IMG/VR virus record: IMGVR_UViG_2703719355_000008
Reading direction: 5' to 3' (one strand)
Source: a virus
Taxonomy: Duplodnaviria; Heunggongvirae; Uroviricota; Caudoviricetes
DNA: 7,973 nt
The position numbers and the translations under genes were made by a program. Below the pieces are notes generated by a model. The model was not told the origin of the DNA. It was given only the letters and a program-made list of their open reading frames with translations, and did no database searches. Shown here one piece after another: positions 2,888 through 4,370 of the stretch (the stretch's first letter is position 1; each line of letters opens with the position of its first letter).

Positions 2888-2897
2888 ATTCATTCCG

Positions 2898-2913
2898 TAT
2901 GGGAATTCCCATA
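2898..2913. promoter_or_regulatory. Perfect 16-bp palindrome TATGGGAATTCCCATA
   Basis: Read directly; equals its own reverse complement. Sits between the small-peptide ORF and the putative hok promoter. No U-tract after it, so a protein-binding site is more likely than a terminator. Confidence 0.35.
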
Positions 2914-2927
2914 TCGGGCAAAAACGG

Positions 2928-2956
2928 TTTGCTGTAAAGCGAGAGTTAAGTAGAAT
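2928..2956 (+). promoter_or_regulatory. Putative hok/mok promoter (-35 TTGCTG 2929-2934; -10 TAGAAT 2951-2956; 16-nt spacer)
   Basis: Hexamers read by eye. Predicted start near 2962 coincides with the 5' element (2961-2974) that is complementary to the mRNA 3' end (3337-3351). Confidence 0.4.
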
Positions 2957-3024
2957 TGCTGCGGGTGCTTGAGGCTGTCTGCCTCGGGCATGCCGCCGTA
3001 AGGCAGACAGAGAAAAGCCCCAGT

Positions 3025-3083
3025 TAACATTACGCGTCCGGCAAGACGCTTAACATTAATCTGAGGCCATATCTATGACTTGC
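3025..3083 (-). ncRNA. sok: Putative Sok-like antisense RNA (approximate bounds)
   Basis: Minus-strand promoter-like hexamers: -35 TTGCCT (complement of 3113-3118), 17-nt spacer, -10 TAACCT (complement of 3090-3095), giving a start a few nt inside mok and transcription into the hok leader. This matches the known hok/sok layout. The 3' end is not defined; a GCGTC/GACGC stem lies at 3043-3058. Confidence 0.35.
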
Positions 3084-3287
3084 ACATGTAGGTTAGCCTC
3101 TTACGTGCCGAAAGGCAAGGAGAAGCAGGCTATGAAGCAGCAAAAGGCGATGTTAATCGCCCTGATCGTCATCTGTTTAACCGTCATAGTGACGGCACTG
3201 GTAACGAGGAAAGACCTCTGCGAGGTACGAATCCGAACCGGCCAGACGGAGGTCGCTGTCTTCACAGCTTACGAACCTGAGGAGTAA
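3075..3287 (+). CDS. mok: Mok-like overlapping reading frame (70 aa), in frame with hok
   Basis: ATG at 3075 with SD-like TGAGG 8 nt upstream; N-terminal extension MTCTCRLASYVPKGKEKQA precedes the hok Met, as in chromosomal mok/hok pairs (from memory). Confidence 0.5.
   Translation: MTCTCRLASYVPKGKEKQAMKQQKAMLIALIVICLTVIVTALVTRKDLCEVRIRTGQTEVAVFTAYEPEE
3132..3287 (+). CDS. hok: Hok/Gef-family type I toxin (51 aa small membrane toxin)
   Basis: Translation MKQQKAMLIALIVICLTVIVTALVTRKDLCEVRIRTGQTEVAVFTAYEPEE carries the Hok/Gef signature (TM helix, TRKDLCEV, conserved C-terminus) and is near-identical, from memory, to E. coli HokD/RelF. AAGGAG SD at 3117-3122. Confidence 0.9.
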   Translation: MKQQKAMLIALIVICLTVIVTALVTRKDLCEVRIRTGQTEVAVFTAYEPEE

Positions 3288-3355
3288 GAGACCTGGCGGG
3301 GGAGAAATCCCTCGCCACCTCTGATGTGTCAGGCATCCTCAACGCACCCGCACTT

Positions 3356-3385
3356 AACCCGCTTCGGCGGGTTTTGTTCTTTTTG
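3356..3385 (+). terminator. Rho-independent terminator of the hok transcript (copy 1 of a 23-bp repeat)
   Basis: Stem CCCGC-TTCG-GCGGG (3358-3371) followed by a T-rich tract TTTTGTTCTTTTT. Confidence 0.75.
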
Positions 3386-3427
3386 TGAAAAAAATTCCCT
3401 TAAAGGAGATTTTTTTAACTAAAAAGG

Positions 3428-3531: not shown

Positions 3532-3891
3532 ATGGCACTCACTGAATTCGGTAAGGCCGTTAGAAAAGCGAGGATCGATACTGACAGTACTCTTCTGACT
3601 ATGTCTCAAGAACTGGGCACTACGCCAGCGTTTCTTAGCGGTTTAGAAACTGGTAGCAAAAAAATACCTCTGAAGTGGGTTAAGAAGATTGATTCTTACT
3701 TCAAGGCCAAAGGTGTAGAAATTGAAGGGTTACAGGAGTTAGCGGCAGTTGCGAATGACTCAGTTCCAGTAAACGGTTTGTCTCAGCAACAGAAAATGCT
3801 TGTAGCGGGATTCGCTAAGTCGCAGTTTACGCCGGAACAGCTAAAGAGTTTTGCAGATTTATTGCAAAAGATTAATAACAATGAGGGGTAA
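3532..3891 (+). CDS. XRE/Cro-type helix-turn-helix transcriptional regulator (119 aa) with C-terminal extension
   Basis: ATG at 3532 with SD GAGGAT at 3521-3526. N-terminus (LTEFGKAVRKARIDTDSTLLTMSQELGTTPAFLSGLETGSKKIP) fits the HTH_XRE pattern. Stop at 3889-3891 is 2 nt before the next gene. Confidence 0.85.
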   Translation: MALTEFGKAVRKARIDTDSTLLTMSQELGTTPAFLSGLETGSKKIPLKWVKKIDSYFKAKGVEIEGLQELAAVANDSVPVNGLSQQQKMLVAGFAKSQFTPEQLKSFADLLQKINNNEG

Positions 3892-3893
3892 TT

Positions 3894-4370
3894 ATGTATC
3901 AAATGAGAGGTAACAGGGTGTCACCGATGCAAGAAGAAGAAATAGCCTACAGAGCTATAAACTTCTGTAATGCTATTGGTCTTACAGCCTCAAAGCGCAA
4001 AAGAAAGCGTTATGATATGTTCTTTGAAAGCCTGTCAATTTATGGGGTTACTCTTGACGTCAGGACCGACAAAGAGTGGGAGGCTCTGACGTATGATCTA
4101 ACTATCGGACATTGTGACCCCGCTTCTCTAACAATTACGGTTCCCAATAAAATATATGTGAATGCTTGCCTTGGGGAAGAGCATGCACTTGCTGTTATCT
4201 TCCACGAGCTAGGTCATTTGCTTCTTGGACACAAAGCAGTTTTACACTTTTCAGTTAAAGAACCTACTCGTATTGAGGATGCAGAATGGCAGGCAGATAC
4301 ATTTGCGGATATCGTACTGGAAACAATTGGCGTGAGAACACAACAGATGTCGTTCGATTTTTATATGTAA
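3894..4370 (+). CDS. ImmA/IrrE-family (COG2856-like) zinc metallopeptidase (158 aa)
   Basis: SD GAGGGG at 3884-3889. HExxH zinc-binding motif FHELGHLLLGH at residues 103-113 (nt 4203-4217), with size and partner arrangement typical of ImmA-like peptidases paired with XRE regulators. Confidence 0.8.
   Translation: MYQMRGNRVSPMQEEEIAYRAINFCNAIGLTASKRKRKRYDMFFESLSIYGVTLDVRTDKEWEALTYDLTIGHCDPASLTITVPNKIYVNACLGEEHALAVIFHELGHLLLGHKAVLHFSVKEPTRIEDAEWQADTFADIVLETIGVRTQQMSFDFYM

Follow-up and report, generated by a model that had tools for sequence, protein, structure and literature searches.

The DNA analysed here, referred to as the window, is a 7,973-nt stretch of a caudoviricete virus (IMG/VR record IMGVR_UViG_2703719355_000008); positions are counted along it and lie on the plus strand (+) unless the minus strand (-) is given. 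Positions 2929-3383 very probably hold an intact type I toxin-antitoxin cassette, hok/mok/sok, that belongs to the hokD/hokW lineage and is carried by a lambdoid Escherichia coli prophage as an accessory module of its early-right region. An earlier note on this DNA had proposed a complete locus of the hok/mok/sok type here. Its coordinates all agree with the raw sequence, and the proposal is supported by matches to Pfam, PHROG and Rfam RF01794; judged from the sequence, every element by which the hok/sok model of plasmid R1 is defined appears to be present and intact.

The toxin open reading frame (ORF) hok (3132-3287) encodes 51 aa, MKQQKAMLIALIVICLTVIVTALVTRKDLCEVRIRTGQTEVAVFTAYEPEE, and its RefSeq hits are annotated hokD. 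It is preceded by a Shine-Dalgarno (SD) sequence, AAGGAG (3117-3122), which lies 9 nt upstream of the hok ATG and is conserved in an alignment of homologous loci. The mok ORF (3075-3287, 70 aa) starts 57 nt upstream of the hok start with its own SD, is in frame with hok and shares its stop codon, just as the earlier note had read the toxin and its in-frame extension; by analogy, translation of hok would be coupled through mok. The Hok ORF scored 82.9 bits against Pfam HOK_GEF (PF01848; cut-off 22) and 114.7 bits against PHROG 251, 'MokW-like host killing'. By these family-model scores it is a Hok/Gef toxin of about 50 aa with an N-terminal transmembrane helix, and HokD has been used elsewhere as a known-toxic control (bioRxiv 10.1101/2025.08.07.668861). 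A single Rfam family was found in the window, RF01794 ('sok'), at 2963-3137 (+) with 114.2 bits (gathering score 59). As its alignment makes clear, this 157-nt model describes the hok mRNA leader, beginning at GGGUGCUUGAGG in the element tac and stopping at the hok AUG. Its consensus structure consists of a stem between tac and the element ucb, the complement of the Sok terminator hairpin, and a hairpin between the mok SD (SDmok) and the element dcb.

The predicted mRNA begins with tac (translational activator element; GCGGGTGCTTGAGG, 2961-2974, conserved core 2963-2974), whose partner near the 3' end is fbi (fold-back inhibitory element; CCTCAACGCACCCGC, 3337-3351). The near-perfect complementarity that the earlier note had pointed out between these segments was confirmed as 14 bp with a single bulged C (3343). 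The pattern CCTCAA-N(0,1)-GCACCCGC has two sites only in the whole window, tac and fbi themselves, with 0.00 expected from 200 dinucleotide-preserving shuffles. The energy of the tac/fbi duplex was -26.2 kcal/mol, compared with -13.4 ± 3.1 kcal/mol when the 3' segment was shuffled. Folding of the locus returned stable 5'-3' pairing, the minimum free energy (MFE) fold of 2961-3376 containing the tac/fbi helix at -189.4 kcal/mol against -136.3 ± 5.3 kcal/mol for shuffled sequences (z = -10.1). In this predicted closed fold tac pairs with fbi and ucb pairs with SDmok.

For the comparison with relatives, 133 hok loci were gathered from GTDB species-representative genomes and IMG/VR and cut to the transcript, and a non-redundant set of 66 sequences (<97% identity) was aligned with MAFFT (alignment A2). 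We projected the MFE structure of the window onto A2, using as controls the same structure with its 3' partners slid by one to three columns and 500 shuffles. In the projection 88.7% of cells were paired against 36-44% with slid partners, a control that somewhat favours the projected structure because this was derived from one of the aligned sequences; counts of compensatory changes are unaffected by this. Changes on both sides were seen in 44 pairs, where the shuffled mean was 33.3 and none of the 500 shuffles reached 44. Within the tac/fbi helix, U2966-A3346 is replaced by C-G in 12 Photorhabdus and Pantoea loci, G2974-C3337 by A-U in six loci of the Kluyvera group (Kluyvera spp. and an unclassified Enterobacteriaceae genome) and G2973-C3338 by A-U in Citrobacter youngae, and such changes maintain this and other helices across genera that share only 60-70% identity. 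An apparent break in the outer half of the helix in 13-15 Photorhabdus rows of the MAFFT alignment proved to be a one-column register shift, arising because these loci lack the bulged C; their per-sequence duplexes pair perfectly. The per-locus duplexes were computed on short alignment-derived segments, as pairing the whole 100-nt 5' region with the whole 3' flank chained weak pairs and gave uninformative z-scores. The helix is absent from decayed copies: locus L015 has unrelated sequence at fbi, and L047 is additionally frameshifted in hok. Among 35 loci at least 80% identical to the window, the pairwise diversity of tac was 0.000 beside variable neighbouring segments, which argues for selection.

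These data bear directly on whether the 5'-3' complementarity might be incidental, arising by chance or as a side effect of sequences that serve termination or recombination. Indeed the outermost pairs, 2961-3351 and 2962-3350, are unconserved, being kept in just 36-43 of the 66 loci, and would form only if transcription started 2 nt further upstream. The conserved core starts 7 nt past a -10 hexamer, TAGAAT, at G2963, the first position of the Rfam model; given how poorly the outer pairs are kept, the conserved helix is 2963-2974 with 3337-3349. Against an incidental origin stand the chance expectation from the shuffles, the compensatory changes observed in Kluyvera, Citrobacter, Photorhabdus and Pantoea, four further genera, and the loss of precisely this helix from decayed copies. 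The same helix is also the tac/fbi stem that has been established experimentally for the R1 hok mRNA (PMC9841398). An incidental origin is effectively refuted by the covariation, duplex and shuffle tests, and we regard it as exceedingly improbable. The fold-back arrangement that the earlier note had recognised is thus upheld as a predicted structure, with tac/fbi in the MFE fold and covarying across genera.

Downstream of tac the leader forms a hairpin (2975-3010) with a variable loop, and its 10-bp stem (CTGTCTGCCT at 2975-2984, AGGCAGACAG at 3001-3010) is the one that had been noticed earlier at about 2974-3010; over the 66 loci this helix is 94.7% paired, with compensatory change at three pairs. 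The next elements are ucb (anti-SD, 3015-3023), the mok SD GAGG (3063-3066; 8 nt upstream of the mok ATG and invariant in the 66 loci) and dcb (GCCUC, 3096-3100; invariant in the alignment). They have alternative partners. In the closed fold, found in the MFE structure, ucb GCCCCAG (3017-3023) pairs with SDmok. In the open fold, found in the Rfam consensus and in the MFE structure of the first 62 nt, ucb AAGCCCC (3015-3021) pairs with tac 2963-2970, and the partner of SDmok (GAGGC, 3063-3067) in the truncated mRNA becomes dcb, a helix that also belongs to the Rfam consensus. Once the tac/ucb stem was imposed in constrained folding, the SDmok/dcb hairpin arose spontaneously. With fbi present in the full-length RNA, the closed fold was predicted at -191.2 kcal/mol and the open fold (tac/ucb plus SDmok/dcb) at -170.9 kcal/mol; without fbi (2961-3336) the predictions were -155.7 and -154.4 kcal/mol, respectively. 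In these models, removal of fbi abolishes a lock of 20 kcal/mol, and only then do the two folds become nearly isoenergetic. The first 36 nt of the transcript were predicted to form a 15-bp metastable hairpin that sequesters tac (-25.3 kcal/mol), while the predicted MFE structure of the first 62 nt is the tac/ucb stem.

The folding pathway of R1 hok mRNA, defined by experiment on that system and summarised in PMC9841398, runs through the same set of structures. There, tac is sequestered in a metastable hairpin during transcription; the tac/fbi stem then holds the full-length mRNA closed, with ucb over the mok SD, until 3' trimming allows the tac/ucb stem and the SDmok/dcb hairpin to form. The resulting fold is translatable and bound by Sok, and RNase III cuts the Sok/mRNA duplex. 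That a stable toxin mRNA loses its 3' end slowly, that Sok is unstable, that RNase III cleaves the duplex and that Hok kills has been shown for R1 (PMC9841398) and in part for the related hokW-sokW (PMC8621323). The nascent-transcript and switch folds predicted for the window are consistent with this pathway but no proof of it. Because the columns involved in the alternative pairings are invariant, covariation is uninformative either way on ucb/SDmok versus tac/ucb with SDmok/dcb.

The earlier note had called the locus complete without locating the antitoxin. The claim of completeness holds, and we can now place Sok on the minus strand at about 3083-3010. The predicted antisense RNA of about 72 nt, with ends inferred, would consist of a 5' single-stranded tail (about 3083-3069), a terminator hairpin (3068-3016) and a U tract (3015-3012), and would span both the mok SD and the mok ATG; the minus-strand fold had an energy of -30.4 kcal/mol (z = -4.7). 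Its promoter (3118-3090, -) comprises a -35 hexamer, TTGCCT (3118-3113), a 17-nt spacer and a -10 hexamer, TAACCT (3095-3090). Both the promoter hexamers and the terminator hairpin recur unchanged in sokW from the Stx2 phage Sp5 (VT2-Sakai) of E. coli O157:H7 Sakai, which is reported as a 71-nt RNA complementary to the hokW 5' untranslated region (UTR; PMC8621323). In that study, the primer YO-421, used for a promoter-less sokW mutant, turns AGGTTAG into CCGGCTC, and the mutant lost antitoxin activity (PMC8621323); we read the altered stretch as the Sok -10 hexamer. A putative promoter of the hok/mok mRNA (2929-2956), assigned by its position, has a -35 hexamer, TTGCTG (2929-2934), a 16-nt spacer and the -10 hexamer TAGAAT (2951-2956). 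At the other end of the transcript, the 3' UTR contains a 10-bp stem-loop with a GAAA loop (3294-3317), present in the MFE fold, whose helices are 81-97% paired over the 66 loci and in which one pair is split between G-C (31 loci) and A-U (30 loci). By analogy with R1 mutagenesis (PMC9841398), this stem-loop likely protects the 3' end of the processed mRNA. Directly past fbi, terminator prediction gave an intrinsic terminator of the hok mRNA (3356-3383; GC-rich hairpin 3356-3373 followed by a T run), in agreement with the earlier placement of the 3' complementary box just upstream of a terminator.

Read step by step against the R1 model, the sequence and predicted structures of the window suggest the following mechanism. 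A weak constitutive promoter would produce an mRNA of about 420 nt, in which tac would be held in a local metastable 5' hairpin during transcription. Once the 3' end had been made, tac would pair with fbi (3337-3351) to give the closed fold with ucb over the mok SD, so that neither Mok nor translationally coupled Hok would be made and Sok would be unable to bind. Slow 3' trimming would then strip fbi from the mRNA, and the tac/ucb stem and the SDmok/dcb target hairpin of the open mRNA would form. The short-lived Sok (about 3083 to 3010, minus strand) would bind this open mRNA, and RNase III would destroy the duplex; if the supply of Sok were stopped, translation of the open mRNA would yield the membrane toxin of 51 aa. 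The likely trigger is a halt in Sok transcription, brought about by prophage induction, loss of the element or shut-off of host transcription by an infecting phage.

From its sequence, the cassette is probably an active type I toxin-antitoxin module in a lambdoid prophage, and its expression, processing, toxicity and role are read here through the sequence and the analogy with studied relatives. Several results weigh against this reading. The NCBIfam Hok models matched the Hok ORF with scores short of their curated cut-offs (48.5, where 73 is required). In a consensus promoter scan both the hok and the Sok promoter stayed below the threshold (9 of 12), which is why position and identity to the sokW promoter served to assign them. 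ViennaRNA favours a closed-like fold of the truncated RNA by 1.3 kcal/mol, and the switch is accordingly permitted by the energetics rather than demonstrated. Finally, chromosomal hokA, hokB and hokC, which have apparently complete elements, were reported to show neither post-segregational killing nor a rifampicin response (summarised in bioRxiv 10.1101/2025.08.07.668861), so completeness of sequence is no guarantee of activity.

Such chromosomal loci raise the prospect that the cassette is a silent relic, complete-looking but unexpressed or non-activatable, with a conserved structure that reflects recent common ancestry only. The weak match of both promoters to consensus fits this, as does the fact that many copies in the gathered homologue set are more than 90% identical. 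Recent ancestry, however, does not account for the compensatory changes that keep tac/fbi and other helices across distant genera, or for a tac without diversity beside variable segments. Expression from the prophage is known for the 92%-identical hokW-sokW, which influences both lysis and the yield of phage (PMC8621323). Truly decayed copies also look different, L015 and L047 having lost fbi or the reading frame and K-12 hokD its leader, whereas no insertion sequence (IS) element, frameshift or deletion was seen in the window cassette. A silent relic is thus quite improbable in our judgement, and the earlier view that this is no decayed copy stands as far as alignment with homologous hok loci can tell, the regulatory elements appearing intact.

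If the module is active, two roles come into consideration. One is to aid the lytic cycle of the prophage itself: induction would stop Sok synthesis, and Hok would damage the inner membrane before holin and endolysin act, raising phage release. In Sp5, sokW RNA vanishes after mitomycin C, HokW appears RecA-dependently about 1 h before endolysin, and deletion of the locus halves phage release (PMC8621323). The window copy lies in the same kind of lambdoid early-right region. On the other hand, the effect in Sp5 is just two-fold (PMC8621323), and the window allele, unlike hokW, carries its own terminator, the two also diverging at four C-terminal residues of Hok and in the 5' tail of Sok; we can put this role forward only tentatively. 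The other role is prophage addiction through post-segregational killing or, alternatively, abortive infection, in which the shut-off of host transcription by a lytic phage would let Sok decay and Hok kill the cell. R1 hok/sok stabilises plasmids and, as summarised in PMC8621323, lowered the plating efficiency of T4 by 42% and its plaque size by about 85% when carried on a high-copy plasmid. The T4 exclusion invoked in the earlier note concerns that construct and not the window allele. Although hok genes are four-fold enriched in prophages, they are not enriched beside defence systems (bioRxiv 10.1101/2025.08.07.668861), and the tested chromosomal hok loci described in the same preprint gave no post-segregational killing; addiction or defence is, in our view, a rather unlikely role.

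One segment of the cassette departs from the general conservation. Positions 3068-3089 form the interior and loop of the SDmok/dcb target hairpin, encode mok codons 1-5 and are complementary to the Sok 5' tail. In the 35 close relatives the pairwise diversity of this block was 0.317, about 12-fold that at hok third-codon positions (0.026), and it rose to 0.405 at the block centre (3078-3084, the loop in an Rfam-style hairpin); the 3' UTR gave 0.095. The block (about columns 108-131 of A2) occurs in 37 variants. In E. coli ECMA0423 all three recovered full-length copies (L004, L005 and L012) differ in it, and so do all three from S. flexneri SFBU1023 (L007, L009 and L013). Diversity so far above that of synonymous-type sites within one 460-bp cassette suggests that distinct pairs of Sok and target are selected for. 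With antisense RNAs like CopA and RNA I, incompatibility groups are set by differences in the loops. The block may then be a specificity barcode under diversifying selection that insulates the Sok of each prophage from co-resident hok mRNAs, a proposal that we find plausible but to which we would not yet give even odds; relaxed constraint could explain part of the diversity. If the block does set Sok specificity, each cassette would be an element-specific addiction or induction module, and this would account for the tolerance of E. coli genomes to as many as ten hok/sok copies without cross-neutralisation. A non-exhaustive search of the hok literature found no discussion of this variability, and the hypervariable Sok-recognition block is the sole angle of the locus with some research value.

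A separate observation concerns the end of the toxin gene. The motif UUACGAA (window 3268-3276), which includes the Tyr47 codon TAC (3270-3272), is invariant in all 66 aligned loci. It resembles the tRNA-Arg2 anticodon loop recognised by TadA. The mRNAs of hokC, hokD and hokE are reported to undergo A-to-I editing, by which residue 46, close to the C-terminus, becomes a cysteine (bioRxiv 10.1101/2025.08.07.668861). We infer that the Tyr47 codon is that editing site, where editing of A3271 would recode Tyr47 to Cys.

The genes around the cassette place it in the early-right region of a lambdoid prophage. Upstream lie the C-terminal part of a replication-initiation protein and a Ren-like/DUF977 protein, and downstream a helix-turn-helix (HTH) and ImmA/IrrE pair, DUF968, RusA and a Q-type antiterminator. 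The pair immediately downstream of hok (3532-4370, +) consists of an HTH protein of 119 aa and an ImmA/IrrE-type metallopeptidase (Peptidase_M78, HExxH), and represents another accessory module in the interval from the replication genes to the antiterminator. Directly upstream of hok, a 34-aa ORF (2783-2887, +; MSDDISLVMEGALAVIAVVGVYCLVVFLMDRLGN) has a GGAGG-type ribosome-binding site and a hydrophobic C-terminal half, and RefSeq lists its product as hypothetical; as a candidate second toxin it was checked against Pfam, PHROG and NCBIfam and matched none of them. Two minus-strand ORFs that overlap the locus (2890-3030 and 3101-3265) were set aside as mechanical ORFs with no support. A perfect 16-bp palindrome with an EcoRI site at its centre, TATGGGAATTCCCATA (2898-2913), lies just outside the left edge of the cassette, and an A/T-rich inverted repeat (3385-3419) lies just past the terminator.

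Related DNA is common. The 521 bases from 2900 to 3420 recur with 99.8% identity in four E. coli chromosomes, whose annotation names the ORF hokD. Relatives of this DNA were found in 4728 of 5426 complete E. coli genomes, at a median of two places per genome and a maximum of 10, and in 102 phage records, many of them Stx-converting phages. Three further loci (L017, L022 and L055) encode Hok proteins 96-100% identical to that of the window, on very short contigs labelled Acinetobacter idrijaensis, Xanthomonas pisi and the metagenome-assembled genome 'Candidatus Scatousia'; these are most likely E. coli or phage contamination and not a real host range. The cassette is already known both as a kind and as a sequence and is an ordinary copy of hok/sok. 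It carries little weight as a discovery, since near-identical RefSeq copies are annotated and documentation already exists for the cassette, for the fold-back regulation and for the enrichment in prophages. Its value is practical: it offers a clean, fully annotated example of intact hokD and confirms a lambdoid prophage with a toxin-antitoxin module.

The window cassette was also compared with more remote hok loci. We presume that the IncFII locus L136 is of the R1 type, its Hok being identical to that of R1. Its elements stand in the same order as in the window, with similar spacing: tac to mok ATG is 110 nt (112 in the window), mok ATG to hok ATG 57 nt in both, and hok stop to fbi 54 nt (50 in the window). 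It matches RF01794 with 87.2 bits and has the same tac core, GCUUGAGGC. Its Hok, in contrast, is just 42% identical to that of the window, the DNA can be aligned only near dcb and the hok SD, and the tac/fbi helix of the window is longer (12-14 bp with one bulge). R1 hok/sok belongs to a plasmid replicon with proven post-segregational killing, whereas the window is prophage DNA. Escherichia loci with about 80-82% Hok identity, which we take to be like chromosomal hokC (gef), also have the tac, ucb, dcb and fbi architecture of the window. They form tac/fbi through a G-U wobble (CTTC for CCTC), have a shorter Sok terminator hairpin and share 63-69% nucleotide identity with the window; L015, the copy with unrelated sequence where fbi stands, is hokC-like.

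The relative that has been studied in most detail is hokW-sokW of Sp5, with about 92% nucleotide identity from promoter to fbi. The two cassettes occupy the same type of lambdoid prophage position and have identical tac, ucb, Sok terminator hairpin, Sok promoter, dcb, hok SD and fbi. Their Mok/Hok ORFs are 91% identical, and HokW shares 47 of the 51 Hok residues, the four C-terminal differences being TA..P.E in the window versus VD..S.K in Sp5. Takada et al. (2021, PMC8621323) showed HokW to be toxic and located it in the inner membrane, and sokW expressed from its own promoter neutralises it in a partly RNase III- and Hfq-dependent manner (PMC8621323). The target-hairpin interior, and with it the Sok 5' tail, reads CATATCTATGACTTG in the window and TCAATCCATGCTGAA in Sp5. 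In the leader hairpin G2977-C3008 of the window is A-T in Sp5, a compensated change, and the loop differs. The intrinsic terminator hairpin (3356-3373) is found in the window and most relatives but is absent from the Sp5 hokW locus, so the 3' end of the full-length Sp5 mRNA must form differently. Homology between the two is confined to about 2920-3355, and the hok module of about 460 bp therefore behaves as a movable unit with variable flanks.

A further comparison is with hokD of E. coli K-12 (relF, b1562) in the cryptic prophage Qin. It is nucleotide-identical to the window from the hok SD through the coding sequence, and just two substitutions separate them across the 3' UTR, fbi and terminator (window 3119-3383 against locus L137). 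Upstream, however, the promoter, tac, ucb, sok, mok start and dcb have been replaced by relBE in K-12, with the breakpoint just upstream of the hok SD. With its leader lost to relBE, K-12 hokD is left with an orphan fbi and no Sok control; as the third gene of a relBEF operon, without a leader or Sok of its own, it does not have the architecture seen in the window. The window thus contains the complete ancestral arrangement, the intact form of hokD that K-12 has lost.

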